From: a bacterium
GTDB taxonomy: Bacteria; UBA10199; 2-02-FULL-50-16; JAJFLM01
Length of the DNA stretch: 64,000 nt
Assembly (NCBI GenBank): GCA_965216315.1
Contig: CBDCFN010000016.1
Span: 2,277,060-2,341,059 of the forward strand
Reading direction: 5' to 3'
Shown here: positions 3,721 through 42,305 of the stretch, piece by piece
Layout: the number at the start of each line of letters is the position of its first letter
How positions within the stretch are numbered: position 1 is the first letter of the stretch
Made by a program: the position numbers and the translations under genes
The notes under the pieces: generated by a model
The model's input: the letters and a program-made list of their open reading frames with translations, nothing else
Database searches by the model: none
Told to the model about the DNA's origin: nothing

Positions 3721-4569
3721 TTACGCTCTTTCATGTTTTGTCACCGGCAGCATCTGGATACTGAGCAAGACAACATCATCTGGATTGTCATCGTCAGCAA
3801 CCAACTGGAGGATTTCGCGTCGAAACTCCTGAATGCGTTTTTTGATCTGCGGGACTCTTTCTTTAATAATTCCTAAAGTCAGAGCACTGACATCCCGTTC
3901 TTTTTGTTCCACCTCGGGAAGCTGCCCTTTTAATAAATCAAACAAACTCTGGTGATAATTTAAAAGCACGAGGGAATCGGCTTCGGCACCGCTCGTTACA
4001 AGCGGTGTCGCCTGTTTCCACTTATTGGTCACCGCATCACGCTCAATAAAATGAAGTCGCGCCAACAATTCGACGGACTTTTTTACTTGCGCGGGAGACA
4101 CTTCCGGCTGCAATCTTTTAGCCAACCACTCGATTGAACCGTCAAAATCCTTAGAAATGATCAACTCGCGCACAACCGGATGATACCAGGTTGAAAAATA
4201 CTCGTAACGATCCTGCGCAAGTGGCTCTAACTGACTGTAGCGTTGAGAACGAATCAACTTCTTATAGTAAGCGTTTTTTTCCGCGTGCGTTTTCGCCTGA
4301 TTAAAGAAGACGAGATTACGAAAGTGCTCGCGCTCCGGACGCTCCAGTTTGATTCCTTTAATGAATTTCTTGAGGCTTTCCTCAGTCAGGTTACGTTCGC
4401 CATCCATGACGAGTTTAAAAATATTGGAGGATTTAAAGCCGGCTTGCCGGGAAAAGACCCGATATGAAAACCCGTACCGCTCTTTGGCCGATTCATACCA
4501 ATCGCGCAAGAAGGCCCGGTAATCCATATAATCGAATACTGAGACGTTATTGTTGCCGTTGTTACCCAT
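3721..4569 (-). CDS. XRE-type HTH protein, TIGR02147/DUF4423-like paralog 1
   Basis: 282 aa; conserved N-terminal block DYRAFLRDWYESAKERYGFSYRVFSRQAGFKSSNIFKLVMDGERNLT (HTH_XRE-like, GxRNLS end); paralogous to 7373-8233, 10214-11062, 18151-18723, 43573-44427. Confidence 0.75.
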   Translation of the reverse strand: MGNNGNNNVSVFDYMDYRAFLRDWYESAKERYGFSYRVFSRQAGFKSSNIFKLVMDGERNLTEESLKKFIKGIKLERPEREHFRNLVFFNQAKTHAEKNAYYKKLIRSQRYSQLEPLAQDRYEYFSTWYHPVVRELIISKDFDGSIEWLAKRLQPEVSPAQVKKSVELLARLHFIERDAVTNKWKQATPLVTSGAEADSLVLLNYHQSLFDLLKGQLPEVEQKERDVSALTLGIIKERVPQIKKRIQEFRREILQLVADDDNPDDVVLLSIQMLPVTKHERA

Positions 4570-5635: not shown

Positions 5636-5675
5636 TTACACATACGCACCCATGACACTCCAAAAAGGTCATCCC
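5636..5675 (+). repeat. direct repeat copy 2
   Basis: see 5471-5510. Confidence 0.7.
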
Positions 5676-5700
5676 TCTCCCCGGGGGGATGACCTTTTTA
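5662..5700 (+). terminator. intrinsic terminator, bidirectional architecture
   Basis: AAAAA-GGTCATCCC-tctccccggg-GGGATGACC-TTTTTACTTTT; perfect 9 bp GC-rich stem. Confidence 0.6.
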
Positions 5701-6188: not shown

Positions 6189-7376
6189 CTAGGGTTGCGC
6201 CGTAAACGAAGTCGTTGCGGCCTTGGTCTTACCGCCCGTCCCGCAGTCGATTTCATCGACCTTGACCTCGTATTCGGTCCCGGCGGCAAAGGGGTCAACG
6301 CCGTGCTCGCACGCGATCTCATCCGCCCCCAGCTGATGGTTGGTGCAATCGACGTCGATCGCGAGTCCTTTGGGCTGAATAATCAGCGCGCTGGGAAAAT
6401 CGATCAGGCCAAGATGATATTTGCAGCCCAAGCGAACAATCACCTGTTCCGAGAGGCCTACGCCCGTCTGACCGTTGAAGGGATAAATTCTCAAGACCGG
6501 AACCATCCCCCCCAAATCTTCCTCACGACAAGGTGAGCCGGGATCATTGTCATCGATAAAACCATTGAGGTCACAATCCCGCTCCATTTGATCAAGTACG
6601 CCGTCGTTATCATCGTCCGTGTCGATCGCATCCGAGTCCCCATCCTCGTCGCGGTCCGTATAGATCTCCGGATTGTGTTCCGGAATCGCGTCAAGACCCT
6701 CGATCTGCACCCGACCTAAGTCAACGGGTTTCTCGGCCGGGAGCCCGACGTAAAACTCATTTTGGCGGATAAAGGCGCGCTGCTTACTGAGATGTTCCAT
6801 CTTCACGACCAGGCGCGCGACGAGGTCACCGGTCTTTTTTCGGAACTCCAGCATATAAGCGCGCTTGGTCGGCACAGCGAGCTTAAAAGAGCAATCCGAT
6901 TCAATTCTCGTAGTGAGCTCTTGTCGTGCAGAGTTGATCGCGGTCACGGTCGCGGCCGGACAGACCTTGACTACCGCAATTTTAGTCGCCTGCTCGGCCC
7001 ATTCCGTCCGGATGTTTACCAGACTCATCTGCATGAGCGGCCTGATATCCTTATACGGCAATTCGCGCACCGGGCTCTCGATCAGCTGCCGTTCCTCTTC
7101 CACGGGCTGCAGCTGACCGATGATCAGGCGTAGCGGAGCCGGATCCTGATCGTAAGGTGTTCCCGGCCGTGGCCCTGGTCCCGGATCAGTCGGCGTCGCT
7201 TCCGGATTCCCGAAATCCGTTCCCCCGAACTCTGGGTTCCCGAAATCCGTTCCGCTGATCGTTTGCTCGGTATCGACAATGTCCGGTGGTGCGGTATCCG
7301 CTCCCTGCGGCTGGACGCACGCGGCAATAAAAAAGACGAGCGCAATAGTACTGAGCAACCGGCTCCAGCAGGTCAT
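6189..7376 (-). CDS. lipoprotein with tandem GTDFGNPE motifs and thrombospondin-type-3-like Asp-rich calcium-binding repeats
   Basis: 395 aa; lipobox FIAAC; GTDFGNPEFGGTDFGNPE; DRDEDGDSDAIDTDDDNDGVLD and DCDLNGFIDDND; start overlaps stop of 7373-8233 by 4 bp; paralogous to 11507-12652. Confidence 0.7.
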   Translation of the reverse strand: MTCWSRLLSTIALVFFIAACVQPQGADTAPPDIVDTEQTISGTDFGNPEFGGTDFGNPEATPTDPGPGPRPGTPYDQDPAPLRLIIGQLQPVEEERQLIESPVRELPYKDIRPLMQMSLVNIRTEWAEQATKIAVVKVCPAATVTAINSARQELTTRIESDCSFKLAVPTKRAYMLEFRKKTGDLVARLVVKMEHLSKQRAFIRQNEFYVGLPAEKPVDLGRVQIEGLDAIPEHNPEIYTDRDEDGDSDAIDTDDDNDGVLDQMERDCDLNGFIDDNDPGSPCREEDLGGMVPVLRIYPFNGQTGVGLSEQVIVRLGCKYHLGLIDFPSALIIQPKGLAIDVDCTNHQLGADEIACEHGVDPFAAGTEYEVKVDEIDCGTGGKTKAATTSFTAQP

Positions 7377-26688: not shown

Positions 26689-27369
26689 TTAGTGAACCGG
26701 AGACTGCGTGAGGTGTTCACGGATCTGTGCAAGCGCATCCGGGTTATCACGGAAGTACGCCTGGGCCAACGACTGGGCATCCCGGCTACCGCCGACGTAA
26801 ATATCCCGCGTCGCAATGGGCGCCACCGGTACGGCTGGTTCATCCGGCGGATTTCCCGTCACGACGACGGGGGTCCGAACGGGCCCGCCTGCATTGGCAA
26901 GGGGCATGGCTCCGGCGGGTCGGCGGTTAGCAAAGTTTGCCGAAAAGGTCAGGGTCTGGCCCTGGTAACGAACGGTTGCCACATTGGAGTCGCTTAGATT
27001 CGGTACCGTACCCGGCTGACCGACTCCGCCGCGAGCCATCGTTCCCTGCGAGCGCGCGATGATCGCATCGACAGGACTAAACAGGTTGGCGGGTTGCCGC
27101 GTCGTGCCGCTATCCGGCGCTTGAGTGGCGCGTGCCACTATCGGATTAGCAGGCGGGGGCGTCGGTTCGGGCAAACTCGCCAACAGATCCTCAGCTGGGT
27201 CCGCAGGGGCTGTTTGGCCGTGAGCTCGATCGTAAGTTGCAAGCGCTTCATCTACCGACTGCGTAATAGGATCTGCCGATGCTGTCGGGCTGGCTTGGCC
27301 GTGAGCTCGATCGTAAGATTGAAGGGCCGCGTCAACGACGGCCCCGATATCGATTGTATTTCCACCCAT
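26689..27369 (-). CDS. low-complexity Ala/Pro/Thr-rich protein of unknown function, paralog A (MGGNTI N-terminus)
   Basis: 226 aa; strong SD AAGGAG 8 nt upstream of ATG; internal repeats DAALQSYDRAHGQ and DEALATYDRAHGQ; no signal peptide; paralog of 28539-29087. Confidence 0.6.
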   Translation of the reverse strand: MGGNTIDIGAVVDAALQSYDRAHGQASPTASADPITQSVDEALATYDRAHGQTAPADPAEDLLASLPEPTPPPANPIVARATQAPDSGTTRQPANLFSPVDAIIARSQGTMARGGVGQPGTVPNLSDSNVATVRYQGQTLTFSANFANRRPAGAMPLANAGGPVRTPVVVTGNPPDEPAVPVAPIATRDIYVGGSRDAQSLAQAYFRDNPDALAQIREHLTQSPVH

Positions 27370-27476
27370 GATAAGTCTCCTTGTTTTATACGGTTTTGGT
27401 TAAATCCTTCATTGGACACAACGTTTCGCGTTCGGCTTCGATAAGGGTCGCGTCATGGGAATCAGACACTATTGTT

Positions 27477-28574
27477 ATGCCTGGATTCCAAAATCTCACG
27501 ACCGTGGCCCGACGTCTGCGCGTCCATCTGCAGCAGCATCACGGGCCGAATGACCCCGCGCTTGATCGCGGGATTCCTCTGCGCCGTTGGGCTGCCCCTT
27601 CTTCTTCCGGTCTCAGTTCCCAAGCCCCACAGCTTGTCCCGGGTCAGGCCGATACTCTGGTCAGCGTCCCGGAAATCTTTCAAGAAAGTCTGCGTCGTCT
27701 AGAACAAATTCGTTTTGGCTCGACTTCCTTTGCCAGGGAGGTGGCTTCAACCAACCCGACCGCCACTGACTTCTATAATGACTACCGCCGCGACGCGGCT
27801 TACTTTCCCCCCTGGCTCATCGATGATGGCAACCCCATCAACTTGGCGGATCATGCCTTGCGGGCCCGTATCGATTCCGTCGTTCAGACAGCTCAGCGGG
27901 AAGCACAACGCAGGGGCCACCGACGGGGATCGGTCCCCTACAATGACCTGGTTTTGACGCGGCTGTTGCAATCGCTCCGCCAGGCTCAAAGTGCCGGCGG
28001 TTTTGGCCTGAGCTACGTCTTCAGTGCCGGCAACCGCCATCGGCGCCGTAATGCCATCGAGGCCTTCGCCGCCCATCAAGGTGACTGCAATGCCTTCTCG
28101 TTTCTCTTCTACGCCTTGGCACGACGTGCGGGACTCAATCCCCGCTTCATCAGTATTCCGGGGGAGCGCCAAAGCTACACGGGACCGTTTCGGGCGATCT
28201 ATCACGTCGGCGTCGCCGTCGAAGTTCGTCCCGGCGCCTTACGGCCCTGTGATCCGAGTCGCGGGGTCCGTGTCGATGAAGGGCGTTATCAATGGTATCC
28301 GCTGACCAACCTCGAAATGCTGGCCAGTTTCCTGCGGGATGTCGGCCTCTACAATGTAAGTCGACCCGCAGAACAAGAGCAGATCTTGCTCCAGGCCTAT
28401 CGACTGGCTCCGAACAGCTTCGACATCGCTCACGACGTCAGCTGGTTTTATCGGAACATCCGGCACAGCCCCCGAAGGGCTGCGCCCTACGTGCGTAGGG
28501 CGCAGCAGATTAATCCTTCGATGCAGCCGATCTGGGAATCAGTCCAGCGTCAGCGGGCCGGGCGTCCGAAGTAA
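27477..28574 (+). CDS. transglutaminase-like cysteine peptidase superfamily protein
   Basis: Cys motif GDCNAFSFLFYALARRAGLNPRFISIP, His motif YHVGVAVEV and Asp CDPS in canonical order and spacing; start uncertain (track TTG 27381 is 12 bp from the divergent gene, ATG 27477 preferred). Confidence 0.6.
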   Translation: MPGFQNLTTVARRLRVHLQQHHGPNDPALDRGIPLRRWAAPSSSGLSSQAPQLVPGQADTLVSVPEIFQESLRRLEQIRFGSTSFAREVASTNPTATDFYNDYRRDAAYFPPWLIDDGNPINLADHALRARIDSVVQTAQREAQRRGHRRGSVPYNDLVLTRLLQSLRQAQSAGGFGLSYVFSAGNRHRRRNAIEAFAAHQGDCNAFSFLFYALARRAGLNPRFISIPGERQSYTGPFRAIYHVGVAVEVRPGALRPCDPSRGVRVDEGRYQWYPLTNLEMLASFLRDVGLYNVSRPAEQEQILLQAYRLAPNSFDIAHDVSWFYRNIRHSPRRAAPYVRRAQQINPSMQPIWESVQRQRAGRPK

Positions 28575-29087
28575 CGCCGCACGGTCATTGGGACGGGCCC
28601 AAAGAGTCTGACCGCCGTGGCTGCGAACCGCGACAAAACCTTCGCTGGGCGCGCTGGCGCCAGCAGACGTCACGATGACCGGATGACCTTGGATGGTGCC
28701 GGTGCGAACACTCGGCGTTCCGCTCCCACCACGGGCCATTGGCGTATCCGAGGTTACAGGAGCGTCAATAGGACGCTCGGTTACAGGTCTCGGCTGACTA
28801 AAACGAGCGGCACTGCGTGCCACTGCGCCAGCAGTAGGAGCACTACCGCTCGTCGATCCATTGTGGTTGGCATCATAAGAAGCGAGTGCACTATTCACCT
28901 GCGGTTCAACAGCGTTGTTATCATAGGAGTCTAACGCAGCATCGACGATGGCGACCGTTTGGCGCGCCTCAGGTGTGGTTGCGGGAGCATCAGACAGCGG
29001 CACGGAATCGAGTAATTCCGTATTCGGTTCAGGCGCGGCCTGTTGCATGAGAGTTTCAAGACTTGGTCTAATAGTATTATCCCCCAT
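28539..29087 (-). CDS. low-complexity Ala/Pro/Ser/Thr-rich protein of unknown function, paralog B (MGDNTI N-terminus)
   Basis: GAGGAGG SD 8 nt upstream of ATG at 29085-29087; shares MG-x-NTI start, VDAALxSYD, ALASYD and MARGG-x-G-x-P segments with 26689-27369; 3' end overlaps the convergent 27477-28574 by 36 bp. Confidence 0.55.
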   Translation of the reverse strand: MGDNTIRPSLETLMQQAAPEPNTELLDSVPLSDAPATTPEARQTVAIVDAALDSYDNNAVEPQVNSALASYDANHNGSTSGSAPTAGAVARSAARFSQPRPVTERPIDAPVTSDTPMARGGSGTPSVRTGTIQGHPVIVTSAGASAPSEGFVAVRSHGGQTLWARPNDRAALLRTPGPLTLD

Positions 29088-29238
29088 TGTATTTACCTCC
29101 TCAAGTAAAAGGGTGAATTGTTTGAGCACTACTAGAGCAAAGAGTGTGCCAGCAGAGGCATTTAGGAATAAAAGTTATAACACTATGAAAGTATTATGAG
29201 TATCGTACGTGAGGTGGGAGGTCGCCAGGACCTAAAAC

Positions 29239-29275
29239 GTGAACAACGTGAACATATATTGTTTACGTTGTTCAC
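29239..29275. promoter_or_regulatory. large inverted repeat GTGAACAACGTGAACA-tatat-TGTTTACGTTGTTCAC in divergent promoter region
   Basis: 16 bp arms matching 15/16 with 5 nt AT spacer; the left arm carries a tandem CGTGAACA direct repeat. Confidence 0.5.
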
Positions 29276-29333
29276 ACTATTGTGGGCTCAAAAGGAAATT
29301 GCACCTCTGCCCGGAATGGCATAGAGCTGCTGC

Positions 29334-29837
29334 ATGGCGACCAAGATCTTCATCGACGGCTACAATCTCCTCTGGGCCTCCGACACCCATCGCCCCGAGG
29401 CGATTCGCAACTTCGAGCACTCACGCGAAGAGTTGATCCAACGCCTCGCCGGCAGTCCGCGGCTCGCGCGCCATCAAGTCACAATTGTTTTTGACGCGCA
29501 CAAAACGGACGCCTACGACCTGAGTTCAGAAACCATCGATGGGATTGAGGTCCAGTTTACCAGGCAGGGCCAATCCGCCGACAGCGTGCTCAAAAAGCTG
29601 GCGCGTCAACATGGCAGTGCGGCCGTCATCATTAGTTCGGATCGAGAAGTCGCGCGTTATGCGGAAAAAAGGGGTTGCGGCGTATTAGGCTCTCATGAAT
29701 TTGACCTCCTCTTGGATAGTCCACCGGCCAGTGAGGATGACGCCTTCGAGGACGCCGACGAGATCAGTTATAGCAAAAAAGGACCCGCGCGCCGTGACCC
29801 CAAAGCACGGCGTCGCGCCCTCGCGCGGCTGCGCTAG
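29334..29837 (+). CDS. NYN-domain (YacP-like) predicted RNA-binding nuclease
   Basis: N-terminus KIFIDGYNLLWA matches YacP/NYN family starts; 167 aa; basic C-terminal tail. Confidence 0.65.
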   Translation: MATKIFIDGYNLLWASDTHRPEAIRNFEHSREELIQRLAGSPRLARHQVTIVFDAHKTDAYDLSSETIDGIEVQFTRQGQSADSVLKKLARQHGSAAVIISSDREVARYAEKRGCGVLGSHEFDLLLDSPPASEDDAFEDADEISYSKKGPARRDPKARRRALARLR

Positions 29838-29851
29838 GCCTATTCCCTCAC

Positions 29852-30190
29852 TTAATGAACCTGCTGGGCAACGGGAATCGCTAATTGACGCCGCCCGATC
29901 GCCAAGGCCGTGACGAGGCCGCCCTCAAAGTAGGCCCCGATCTGCGCCTCCAAACGTTGTTTGATGAAGCGAAAGGGACCGGGCTCACAACTGAGCGGTT
30001 CCGCGTAAATATCCGCGCGAACATTGGTCATCCGGCCCTCGCCGGTCACTGTATAAGTAAATCGAACCAGCCCATTAAATGAGTAAGGGACTCGAGAGAC
30101 GATTCTCTGTACCCCGCGTACCAGCTCCGCTTGGGTCCACTCCGGTTCGGCAGACTCTATCCTCAGTGTGGAATCGATATGGTGTGACAT
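29852..30190 (-). CDS. hypothetical protein
   Basis: 112 aa; strong SD AAGGAGGG 5 nt upstream of ATG. Confidence 0.5.
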   Translation of the reverse strand: MSHHIDSTLRIESAEPEWTQAELVRGVQRIVSRVPYSFNGLVRFTYTVTGEGRMTNVRADIYAEPLSCEPGPFRFIKQRLEAQIGAYFEGGLVTALAIGRRQLAIPVAQQVH

Positions 30191-30295
30191 GCTTACCCTC
30201 CTTAATGCCCACTAACGTAGCAAGTACCATGCCAAAAAAATCGCGTTCATTTTTTGGACCCAGTTGAAATCATTCAGTAAAGTTATCAACAGATT

Positions 30296-30327
30296 TTCTC
30301 ATTTTGATAACGTTATCAAAATGAGAA
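30296..30327. promoter_or_regulatory. perfect 32 bp palindrome TTCTCATTTTGATAAC|GTTATCAAAATGAGAA
   Basis: lies 106 bp upstream of 29852-30190 start and about 120 bp downstream of tRNA-Pro; no T-run follows on either strand, so operator-like rather than terminator-like. Confidence 0.5.
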
Positions 30328-30443
30328 TGTGGAAACGGGTCATCGCAAATATCCTTTTATTTTATCGATAGTTCGCAGCGATATCTGGAGTGAGCTAGGC
30401 GCAGGAGTGACCTAGGGTGCCGAAATTGTGAGCGAAGCAATTG

Positions 30444-30517
30444 TCGGGGAGACAGGATTTGAACCTGCGACCCCTGCGTCCCGAACGCAGTGCTCTACCA
30501 GGCTGAGCTACTCCCCG
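30444..30517 (-). tRNA. tRNA-Pro (anticodon CGG)
   Basis: cloverleaf readable by eye: acceptor CGGGGAG/CTCCCCG, D-arm GCTC..GAGC, anticodon stem CTGCG/CGCAG with loop TTCGGGA, T-arm GGTTCAAATCC; CCA not encoded. Confidence 0.9.
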
Positions 30518-30725
30518 TAATAATGGGGGTGTGTGCTTCGCCAAGCTAGCTTGGAACACACCCTTCTTACTATCGCGCCGTTTGCCTCGTGCCCTCCGCG
30601 GCACGAGTTTACCGGCTTGATCCCCCAAACCCCCGCTCCTCGATAAGCAAAGCTTTCTCGGAACGACGGCTCGACCGAAGCGAATGATGTCCTAAATTTC
30701 TGCGGAAAAAGCAAAGGAATATCCT

Positions 30726-31700
30726 TTAGGACCCTGACATCACGACACCGCGAGGCGGGGTAAAGGTCAAGTGCCCGCGTCCCGCCTGGGTAAAGGCCAT
30801 CGAGCGCAAGATTTCATGAGGGGTCGAGGTTGCGTCATCCACGGTCGCCAAGAGAACGTAGCCACAACCGGCGTGATACGCCGACCCCTTTTTATAAGGG
30901 ACGGGATGGTATTCGGTGCCCTCAATGACGTACGGATCCCCTCCCTCGCCGGCTTGGGGAATGCCTGCCTGACCCACGGGGGCTATCATGACATTGTCGA
31001 AGGTCCGCGTATAGGTCACACCCTCCGCCGTGCGTCCCGTCACTCCCAGCTGTCCTGCCACCGGGTTAAAAGGGCCCTGGAGAGGAAGACGAATCGAATC
31101 ACTGGAAAGATGGGACGTCCCGCCAAAACGAATGTCGCTGGCCAGATAAACCTGAGCCCCGTCGCTACCTTCCACCGTCTTACCGGCGATCGAGACGAGG
31201 AGCCCCTCGAGCTCCGTCGATTGACTCAAGGCCGTCTGAATATCACGGACCAGTGCCTGCTCCTGGCTGTCACTAAGATCCAATCCCGAGGCGAAGACCT
31301 GCACGCGGTCCAGAGACGCCATGGTCAGCCCCTCGGTATTCGCAACCGTCGCATCGAGATAAATCATCAAGGATCCGGTATCGAGACGGGTGTAGCGATC
31401 GCCCAAGGCTCCGGTCAGGGTCTCTCCCACGATTCGATTGACCTCCGGATTGGAGAGGCGATGGCCGGGGTCCGACATGGGCGGCGTCGACGCTGAAGAG
31501 GCCGGGAGGGTCCGTGCCATCACGGATGTACCGCCGTTGGCACCTGAAGACCCCGCCATCGCTTGAAACGAACGGCTTACCTCGGCCTCCGTCATAGTTG
31601 GCTCGGCCGCTACGGCGGTATCACTGGATACAAATTGTGCTGTATTGATATCGGCCATGGTGCGAACCATGGCGCTTCCTTGAATAATTGTTTCAGACAT
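30726..31700 (-). CDS. hypothetical protein
   Basis: start at MSETIIQ with GGAGG SD; 5' UTR and upstream operator nearly identical to those of 42867-43409; no recognised domain. Confidence 0.5.
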   Translation of the reverse strand: MSETIIQGSAMVRTMADINTAQFVSSDTAVAAEPTMTEAEVSRSFQAMAGSSGANGGTSVMARTLPASSASTPPMSDPGHRLSNPEVNRIVGETLTGALGDRYTRLDTGSLMIYLDATVANTEGLTMASLDRVQVFASGLDLSDSQEQALVRDIQTALSQSTELEGLLVSIAGKTVEGSDGAQVYLASDIRFGGTSHLSSDSIRLPLQGPFNPVAGQLGVTGRTAEGVTYTRTFDNVMIAPVGQAGIPQAGEGGDPYVIEGTEYHPVPYKKGSAYHAGCGYVLLATVDDATSTPHEILRSMAFTQAGRGHLTFTPPRGVVMSGS

Positions 31701-31769
31701 TACACACCTCCATGCCTTATTTATTTTCGTCACAATACTCAGGGCAGTTGTGAATGGCGCCGAGATTCA

Positions 31770-31786
31770 GTGTACTCTCAGTACAC
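31770..31786. promoter_or_regulatory. palindromic operator-like site GTGTACT-ctc-AGTACAC
   Basis: 70 bp upstream of 30726-31700 start; the extended 19 bp match CGTGTACTCT-N-AGTACACG is shared with 43478-43496. Confidence 0.5.
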
Positions 31787-31950
31787 GATATTATATGTTA
31801 TAACTATTTGTTTTTATTTATTATTCTATCTATTCTATTTTTTATGTGATTATATATGAAGGAGTTAAAAGTACACGAGGCGAGAACGCAGCAACTTAGA
31901 ATTAATGCCGTCGATAAGACCTCGACTCAAGTGAGGGAGGCTTGTGTGGT

Positions 31951-32853
31951 GTGAGTGGAAACTTCTGTAAACCCTTAAAAGATCAAGATCCGACCGCTCA
32001 TGCGCTCTGTAACCAACTGCGTCATGCCGGCGTCACGAGGGACACACTCGACCAAGGTTCGACTCGCCCTGACTACCAGAACTTCGGCCGTCACCAACTC
32101 GAGGTCACCGACACGTCCGGTTTCTCAATGGCGCACAATGGCGTCCTTGAAATCGCAGAAATTTATGACGCGGCCCTAGCCGCTGCGAGCCTGGCCTGGC
32201 AGCAACCCAGCCGGTACCACGTCGACCCTCGGTCGCAACTAGCCATCCCTTGGCTCCCATCGACCGGCAGTGGTGACACCTCAGTGGATCGCCAACTAGA
32301 AGCCTTGATCCAAAATCCAGCCGCGGCCCTGCCCACCCATGAACCTCCGGGTAGCCCGGCCGCCCATCGTCAGCTGGCCCAACTCCTTTATACAATCTTG
32401 TTACCGGCACTGAACCCAGGGACAGACCTTGACGCCTACCTCTATGCTTCCTACTGCCGCAAACTCGGCATTGTCGCCCAACCGATAGAGTTGACCCTGT
32501 CCGATCGCGTACTGATCGGACTCCAGCTCGATCCCCAGTGGCCCAACCACCTGACATTTGTCGACTTTACGAGAGGGCCGCGCGGTTTTGACGTGACCCT
32601 CTTTGCCGGCGATTGGGTCGCCATCTCCGAGCGAGAGCTGCTCGCCTATCATTATCTCCAGCAAGCGGCCCAACCCCAGGGACTCCAGCGGGCCCTCATG
32701 ATCGCCCCGCAGAACTACCGCGTCATTGCCGCCGAGGCCCGCTTCTTAATGGAAAACGGTTCGCGTGATCAGGCCTGCCAGCGGCTCCGCGAGAGCCTCC
32801 GCCTCAACGCCGTCTTCGCCGGCGCCAGTCAGATGTACGCCCATGACTGCTAA
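31951..32853 (+). CDS. hypothetical protein, possible Cys-His-Asp hydrolase-like fold
   Basis: ORF 31942-32853; GAGGGAGG SD at 31933-31940 favours the GTG at 31951; ordered motifs ASYCRKLGI, NHLTFVDF, GDWV noted, but assignment is weak. Confidence 0.45.
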   Translation: MSGNFCKPLKDQDPTAHALCNQLRHAGVTRDTLDQGSTRPDYQNFGRHQLEVTDTSGFSMAHNGVLEIAEIYDAALAAASLAWQQPSRYHVDPRSQLAIPWLPSTGSGDTSVDRQLEALIQNPAAALPTHEPPGSPAAHRQLAQLLYTILLPALNPGTDLDAYLYASYCRKLGIVAQPIELTLSDRVLIGLQLDPQWPNHLTFVDFTRGPRGFDVTLFAGDWVAISERELLAYHYLQQAAQPQGLQRALMIAPQNYRVIAAEARFLMENGSRDQACQRLRESLRLNAVFAGASQMYAHDC

Positions 32854-32900
32854 CACACGCGCACCGTGACAAAGTTGCAGGGCTCTGTTAGGCCCAAGGC

Positions 32901-41990: not shown

Positions 41991-42185
41991 GGGAGAGAAC
42001 CTACTTCAATAGGACGCGGATGACAAGCCTTACGAAAAAGGCGTCATAGGTGGGCCAGGGGTGGGATTTGCTCGCTACGCTCACCGCAATCTAAGGAATT
42101 ACATCCTGGTCTTCGCCTTCGGCGAAGCGGATTGTCGAACCCACTGCCTGTGGCAGGGGCTTCTCATCCTCCACTACAAATAAAA

Positions 42186-42215
42186 ATAAGGACCCCAGTT
42201 AGGGTCCTTATTTTT
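42186..42215 (-). terminator. intrinsic terminator downstream of tRNA-Ser(GCU), hairpin flanked by A and T runs on both sides
   Basis: AAGGACCC-cagtta-GGGTCCTT perfect 8 bp stem flanked by AAAAAT and ATTTTTAT. Confidence 0.65.
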
Positions 42216-42218
42216 ATG

Positions 42219-42305
42219 CGGAGAGGGTGGGATTCGAACCCACGGTGCAGTTTCCCGCACACTTCCTTAGCAGGGAAGCGCCTTCAGCCACTCGGCCACC
42301 TCTCC
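42219..42305 (-). tRNA. tRNA-Ser (anticodon GCU)
   Basis: acceptor GGAGAGG/CCTCTCC, anticodon stem CTTCC/GGAAG with loop CTGCTAA, long variable arm, T-arm GGTTCGAATCC; 87 nt. Confidence 0.9.

Follow-up and report, generated by a model that had tools for sequence, protein, structure and literature searches.

A 37-bp inverted repeat as a candidate enhancer of a sigma-54-type promoter in front of an orphan bacterial gene

Introduction

The NtrC sites at glnAp2 and the inverted 20-bp repeats of AtoC at atoD are enhancer positions of sigma-54-dependent promoters. Matches to the sigma-54 consensus can, for their part, be non-productive. Sigma-54 enhancers are typically found about 70-150 bp upstream of the promoter (PMC3844500), and several dyad sites, each taking a dimer, are a common design of these elements, as for instance in the case of NorR (PMC2831303).

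The locus described here is part of a 64-kb stretch of bacterial DNA that was analysed as a whole and is called the window. It contains a 37-bp inverted repeat located between two divergent gene starts, those of the orphan MGDNTI gene and of a gene for an NYN-domain protein (Table 1). The original prediction, made from the sequence alone, had regarded this repeat as an operator for a dimer of dimers with shared control of both genes. The present analysis leads to a different proposal, to which we give about an even chance: that the repeat is the upstream activating sequence, or enhancer, of a sigma-54-dependent promoter driving the MGDNTI gene. Most likely, then, it is not a new type of bacterial control element but one of a familiar type.

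Table 1. Coordinates of the repeat and of the features discussed with it (window positions, except in the last row, where positions are those of the loci named).
Feature	Position	Strand	Details
Inverted repeat, 37 bp	29239-29275	none	GTGAACAACGTGAACA-TATAT-TGTTTACGTTGTTCAC; proposed enhancer (upstream activating sequence)
Arms of the repeat	29239-29254; 29260-29275		GTGAACAACGTGAACA; TGTTTACGTTGTTCAC
Heptads of the repeat	29239-45; 29248-54; 29260-66; 29269-75		GTGAACA; GTGAACA; TGTTTAC; TGTTCAC
Exact 9-bp tandem	29237-29254	plus	ACGTGAACA, two copies; forms the left arm; read directly from the sequence
AT-rich spacer, promoter to repeat	29152..29215	none	34% GC against 51% in the window; possible bend for looping
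Sigma-54-type -24/-12 promoter, TGGCAC-N5-TTGCT	29151..29137	minus	TGGCACACTCTTTGC(T); GG 29150-29149, GC 29138-29137
MGDNTI mRNA start, predicted	29125	minus	by arithmetic, counting 12 nt on from the GC element (from its C); 38-nt leader
Ribosome-binding site GAGGAGG	29102-29096	minus	8 nt before the ATG at 29087
MGDNTI gene, 182 aa	28539..29087	minus	orphan; proposed enhancer target
NYN_YacP-domain gene	29334-29837	plus	Pfam NYN_YacP, E=4.7e-25; divergent neighbour of MGDNTI
Putative sigma-70-type NYN promoter	29299..29327	plus	TTGCAC, 17 nt, TAGAGC, 6 nt to ATG; inferred, no call by the promoter scan
Second sigma-54-type promoter	30234..30220	minus	TGGCATGGTACTTGCT; TGGCAY-N5-TTGCW; upstream of a 112-aa ORF (ATG 30190, GGAGG)
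Perfect 32-bp palindrome	30296-30327		TTCTCATTTTGATAAC/GTTATCAAAATGAGAA; at -88 to -119, centre -103
Four-heptad GTGAACA/GTAAACA operators before HTH-ParA genes	L065 276-312; L068 ~531-567; L069 2955-2994; L070 2938-2978		plasmids and islands, alphaproteobacterial

Sequence and architecture of the repeat

The repeat is composed of two 16-nt arms, complementary at 15 of the 16 positions and separated by a 5-nt TATAT spacer. Direct reading of the sequence bears out the size and symmetry first described, and the open reading frames confirm the position between the two gene starts. The sole mismatch of the arms (G29250/T29264) corresponds to a G-U wobble in plus-strand RNA and to an A-C mismatch in minus-strand RNA. 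As for the internal tandem repeats that had also been noticed, the one in the left arm is exact, and the one on the right side is imperfect (TGTTTACGT / TGTTCACAC). Within the arms, four heptads resembling GTGAACA are arranged as 7-2-7-5-7-2-7, with centre spacings of 9, 12, and 9 bp, and a protein-binding site for two dimers would be the most sensible reading of such a four-heptad dyad in intergenic DNA that is predicted not to be transcribed.

The repeat is real and far beyond chance. Inverted repeats with 16-nt arms, at most one mismatch, and a gap of 0-12 nt occur at four places in the real window, against none in 40 dinucleotide-preserving shuffles of it. The four strongest short-range inverted repeats of the window comprise two terminator-like elements and the two elements located upstream of the two sigma-54 matches. 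The terminator-like pair, both long and A/T-flanked, resemble bidirectional terminators, one at 5662-5699 (AAAAAGGTCATCCC...GGGATGACCTTTTT) and the other at 42171-42226 (AAATAAAAATAAGGACCC...GGGTCCTTATTTTTAT), next to a tRNA-Ser gene.

The search for the motif elsewhere, which had been proposed as a check, was carried out within the 64-kb window and the fetched loci, and it returned no second copy of the kind that REP- or MITE-like dispersal would leave. The 16-mer, with up to three mismatches, has no occurrence in the window beyond its own two arms, the 8-mer CGTGAACA is not enriched there, and a blastn-short comparison of the whole intergenic region with the window and all fetched loci gave no further copy, nor any target-site-like flank in the window.

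The symmetry of the repeat would also allow an RNA hairpin, with a stability of -30.9 kcal/mol in its plus-strand context (z=-5.7) and of -23.5 kcal/mol in its minus-strand context (z=-3.8), the hairpin on the minus strand being followed by GUUUUAGG. Such a hairpin might act as a weak minus-strand terminator or insulator, halting transcripts of the 112-aa gene that run antisense through NYN before they arrive at the MGDNTI promoter, or it might be a structural part of an extended NYN or MGDNTI leader. The first of these roles is conceivable, since NYN and the 112-aa gene are convergent and the 14 bp that separate them contain no predicted terminator. Nonetheless, we consider an RNA function of the repeat very improbable. 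An intrinsic terminator follows a gene of the same orientation and has a G+C-rich stem and then a U-tract; the stem of the repeat has 44% GC, it is accompanied by four U residues on the minus strand and by none useful on the plus strand, and no gene end adjoins it on either strand, the repeat lying between divergent gene starts. Moreover, if transcription begins where predicted (minus strand, 29125; plus strand, ~29334), neither transcript would include the repeat. A terminator role, which was the outcome that would have spoken against the original prediction, is thus disfavoured, and the terminator scan makes no call on the repeat. Rfam gave a single, meaningless match to a miRNA hairpin, which at 21.5 bits is below the gathering score of 97.

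A sigma-54-type promoter in front of the MGDNTI gene

The minus strand at 29151..29136 reads TGGCACACTCTTTGCT, a perfect sigma-54 consensus pointing at the MGDNTI gene that had escaped the first reading of this DNA. Across the 64 kb, TGGCAC-N5-TTGC is matched perfectly by this element alone (0.07 matches expected per shuffle), and the more relaxed TGGCAY-N5-TTGCW has exactly two matches in the window, both of them intergenic, on the minus strand, and upstream of ORFs with a GGAGG. The MGDNTI promoter aligns with the conserved sigma-54 promoters of related loci, is identical at 15 of 18 positions to the mapped dgaA site of Salmonella (TGGCACAACCTTTGCTCT; PMC3844500), and places its -24/-12 element 38-50 nt upstream of the ATG. 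No sigma-54 promoter was found upstream of the paralogous MGGNTI gene, of glnB-glnA, or of a 335-aa ORF.

The position of the repeat with respect to this promoter is that of an enhancer. Counted from the predicted start, it extends from -114 to -150, with its centre at -132; measured to the promoter's 5' end, its near edge is at 88 bp and its far edge at 124 bp, within the usual range of about 70-150 bp, and its dyad symmetry would provide multiple sites for activator dimers. The AT-rich spacer between both elements contains an IHF-like match with one mismatch (TATGAAAGTATTA, 29184-29196), which is statistically weak (66 such matches in the window against about 50 expected). No sigma-70 promoter was called over the repeat.

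The MGDNTI protein belongs to no Pfam family and has no homologue among 5.8 billion proteins except itself, and the repeat is left without comparative support because its proposed target gene is an orphan. A weak paralogue is encoded 1.2 kb away (26689-27369, E=3e-5). Both orphans, MGGNTI (26689-27369) and MGDNTI, are on the minus strand and have VDAAL.SYD repeats in common; for the pair, neither a Pfam family nor homologues elsewhere were found. A transglutaminase-like gene (27381-28574) is flanked by the two. A 203-aa gene of the related locus L058 was considered as a positional orthologue of MGDNTI or MGGNTI and was dropped for lack of significant similarity.

The NYN gene and its rearranged neighbourhood

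The putative NYN promoter has the same geometry in two relatives (alignment A2), namely TTGCCA-17-TAGAAG-6-ATG in L058 and TGACGG-17-TATTAG-6-ATG in L063, and both keep this proximal motif without the GTGAACA repeat. In the window and in these two loci (29299-29336; L058 1046-1096; L063 ~140-190), the NYN gene has no ribosome-binding site. These features suggest that the NYN mRNA is leaderless and transcribed from its own promoter independently of the repeat. Of the operator originally proposed, the binding of two dimers is reasonable, whereas the shared control of NYN and MGDNTI is disfavoured by the context and is not supported, since the repeat lies further upstream than either candidate promoter and does not reach into them, which is the geometry of an activator site, and NYN keeps its own motif. 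NYN might still be affected by the repeat, given that 23 bp separate the end of the repeat from the NYN -35-like hexamer.

Among the genomes compared, the repeat and the MGDNTI gene are confined to this one. None of the 12 related loci carries the repeat, and in seven related contexts (L001-L003, L058, L061-L063) it does not precede the NYN homologues; no copy of it is found at orthologues or at other targets in these 12 loci and the window. In L001, the transglutaminase-like gene abuts NYN directly. From this arrangement and from the absence of homologues and of the repeat elsewhere, it follows that the repeat behaves as a single unit with the MGDNTI gene and the promoter of that gene, and that this unit is specific to the lineage.

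The same arrangement makes the segment 28575-29290 look like an insertion, since in L001 the transglutaminase-like gene is directly followed by NYN, and the repeat could be a functionless by-product of local rearrangement, that is, a scar or a recent duplication-inversion at the point where the MGDNTI segment was joined to the NYN promoter. In this sense, the similarity to the relatives resumes about 25 bp past the repeat, the neighbourhood is rearranged in every relative examined, and the exact 9-bp tandem of the left arm fits recent slippage. However, four heptads at even spacing and a 16-nt arm with a single mismatch exceed chance by far, the heptad layout matches that of the plasmid HTH-ParA loci L065, L068, and L069 described below, the repeat is at enhancer distance from a perfect sigma-54 promoter, and the window has neither a second copy nor a target-site-like flank. 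We therefore regard an origin as a mere scar as improbable.

The neighbourhood from 26689 to 32900 is heavily rearranged in comparison with L001, L063, and L064. In L063, NYN, tRNA-Pro, and priA are contiguous, and the orientation of tRNA-Pro differs in L064. The window contains extra inserted orphan genes: MGDNTI, the 112-aa module, and the ORFs at 30726-31733 and 31942-32853 that flank tRNA-Pro. The 335-aa orphan ORF (30726-31733, minus strand) is preceded by very AT-rich DNA that contains a perfect 17-bp palindrome, GTGTACT-GAG-AGTACAC (31770-31786).

A conserved sigma-54 module next to NYN

The second sigma-54-type promoter of the window and the 32-bp palindrome upstream of it form a module (30220-30327) that is kept in the related loci L002, L063, L058, and L062 (alignment A3, aligned on the promoter), whose NYN proteins are 61-73% identical to that of the window. 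The module precedes different downstream genes in these four loci. In L002, L058, and L063 it is divergent from NYN, the slot that in the window is held by the MGDNTI promoter and the GTGAACA repeat; in the window, the module is downstream of NYN. Given this conservation in four related loci, the lineage probably uses sigma-54 with upstream dyad enhancers. A perfect DnaA-box sequence occurs in the conserved enhancer region of L002 (~3875-3885) and L063 (~107-117; TTATCCACA / TGTGGATAA), and the window carries at 30282-30292 the sequence TGTTGATAA, one mismatch from a DnaA box.

Operators with the same heptads in front of HTH-ParA genes

The heptad layout of the repeat has been found in other bacteria. 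A metagenome scan with a pattern of three of the four heptads, for which about one chance hit is expected, returned four loci, including L065 and L068. The strict full-layout pattern gave no match in metagenomes, and the three-heptad pattern gave none in viral contigs. Two of the four, the mutually homologous L065 and L068, both show GTGAACAAYGTAAACA-N5-TGTTTAC-NN-(C/A)GT(T/A)CAC, in which the fourth heptad is present though the search did not demand it; the left arm of L065 is identical at 16 of 16 positions to the minus-strand arm of the window. Homologous loci were found on the plasmid pRL1 of Rhizobium leguminosarum (L069) and on a Methylocystis plasmid (L070). The first three loci (L065, L068, and L069) have GTGAACR-AY-GTAMACA-N5-TGTTTAC-NN-CGTTCAC, and the window repeat shares their 7-2-7-5-7-2-7 layout. 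The gene downstream of the operator in L065 and L068 codes for a ParA ATPase with an HTH fused at its N-terminus. This arrangement resembles that of the self-repressing type Ia ParA proteins (P1 ParA, F SopA), and an operator that overlaps a -35 element shortly before the start codon, as in these loci, is what would be expected for self-repression. These loci indicate that the heptad layout is a working protein-binding architecture. The L065 operator is about 200 bp from the apparent end of a tRNA gene.

The main rival of the enhancer proposal, and second to it, comes from these loci. The window repeat might be a conventional operator for a small AlpA/HTH_17-like helix-turn-helix regulator, working as a repressor site or a class-I-type activator site for NYN and/or MGDNTI, or it might be the orphaned relic of such an operator. 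We judge this to be unlikely. In L065, L068, L069, and L070, the HTH-ParA operators overlap a conserved TTGAC -35 hexamer, 7-8 nt upstream, with the start codon within about 20 nt, and the window has neither: a -35 hexamer at 7-8 nt from the repeat is absent on either strand, no -35/-10 element is overlapped, and the ORFs that adjoin the repeat are NYN and MGDNTI, with no HTH-ParA gene directly downstream. A tblastn search detected no homologue of the HTH of the HTH-ParA proteins in the 64 kb. In addition, the location of the repeat upstream of both candidate promoters is a poor one for a repressor. The HTH-ParA family looks small and alpha/gamma-proteobacterial; a search for homologues of the HTH domain gave 13 mostly partial alpha/gamma-proteobacterial proteins, none of them linked to sigma-54 activators, and the Methylocystis member already departs from the layout. 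It is important to note that the scan was built to return this layout and should yield about one hit by chance; the resemblance therefore serves as a lead and does not prove a common binder.

The two other loci of the metagenome scan were judged unrelated. One of them (L066) has 39% GC, and the other (L067) carries an iteron-like array of TGTTCAAACTG / GTGAACAC units (6825-7082, with periods of 11 and 21), which is probably a replicon or partition site with no relation to the window. A blastn search of plasmids with the repeat gave one 18-nt chance match inside a nitrate reductase beta-like ORF.

Both readings could meet if the four-heptad dyad were a portable module for an AlpA/HTH_17-like domain, perhaps taken from the par operator of a mobile element and co-opted as a sigma-54 enhancer; the activator would then be an AAA+ protein, or a ParA-like one, with a non-canonical DNA-binding domain. 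This combination has only a slim chance of being correct.

A model for the control of MGDNTI

According to the enhancer proposal, the sigma-54 RNA polymerase would sit as a closed complex at the MGDNTI promoter. An AAA+ enhancer-binding activator, encoded elsewhere in the genome, would bind the four heptads as two dimers and assemble into an active ring, which would reach the polymerase by looping of the AT-rich spacer, possibly with the help of IHF, and open the promoter with ATP. From this predicted activator, the looping, and the ATP-driven opening, it would follow that the repeat serves to activate MGDNTI in response to a signal, and that NYN would be affected only secondarily, if at all. 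Pfam detected no enhancer-binding protein, Sigma54_activat domain, or rpoN among the tested ORFs of at least 300 aa in the window. Furthermore, the binder need not be an enhancer-binding protein, since a like heptad layout elsewhere is a sigma-70 promoter-overlapping operator for an HTH protein of another kind.

If the proposal is correct, the repeat would be the sequence that an uncharacterised sigma-54 activator recognises in an uncultured and poorly known lineage, which is deltaproteobacterium-like and has a genome of about 2.4 Mb, and a fast-evolving orphan gene would respond to a signal in an all-or-none manner. Taken with the conserved module nearby, this would mean that small proteins specific to the lineage have been placed under sigma-54. 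In practice the gain is modest, namely a defined site with which to pull down the regulator and a clean pair of promoter and enhancer for reporters; no long-standing question is opened.

Comparison with known systems

Several well-known operators have the GTGAA/TTCAC core in common with the repeat: Rex (TTGTGAA-N6-TTCACAA), the CRP/FNR type (TGTGA-N6-TCACA), LexA of Gram-positive bacteria (GAAC-N4-GTTC), and parS (TGTTTCAC-GTGAAACA). They differ in that no pair of heptads of the window is at the spacing that they require. The inner pair of the repeat is GTGAA-N9-TTTAC, its direct repeats are GAAC-N5-GAAC, and its orientation is opposite to that of parS. By inspection against their consensus sequences, Rex, CRP/FNR, LexA variants, NrdR, CpxR, PhoP, parS, and NifA (TGT-N10-ACA) were ruled out on spacing.

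The HTH-ParA operators come closer, having nearly the same heptads, spacing, and overall length, but the window has a sigma-54 promoter at enhancer distance, no promoter overlap, and no ParA-HTH gene nearby. The conserved module next to NYN is like the repeat locus in its promoter type (TGGCAY-N5-TTGCT), in the large palindrome about 100 bp upstream, and in the NYN-divergent slot that it occupies in the relatives. In contrast, its binding sequence is unrelated (TTCTCATTTTGATAAC/GTTATCAAAATGAGAA plus the element CTGTGGATAAC), the repeat is centred about 30 bp further out (-132 against -103), and the module is kept across genomes whereas the GTGAACA repeat is not.

No enhancer that matches the GTGAACA heptad in the 7-2-7-5-7-2-7 layout was found, and the literature on the motif yielded nothing relevant. 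With respect to the known sigma-54 enhancers, the repeat is set apart by its proposed target, an orphan gene, and by its lack of conservation in relatives. Its general design is nonetheless that of NtrC at glnAp2, of the three NorR sites at norV, and of AtoC at atoD: a dyad, multi-site element about 70-150 bp upstream of TGGCAC-N5-TTGC, with AT-rich and possibly IHF-bent DNA in between, and with a number of half-sites that fits two dimers nucleating a ring.
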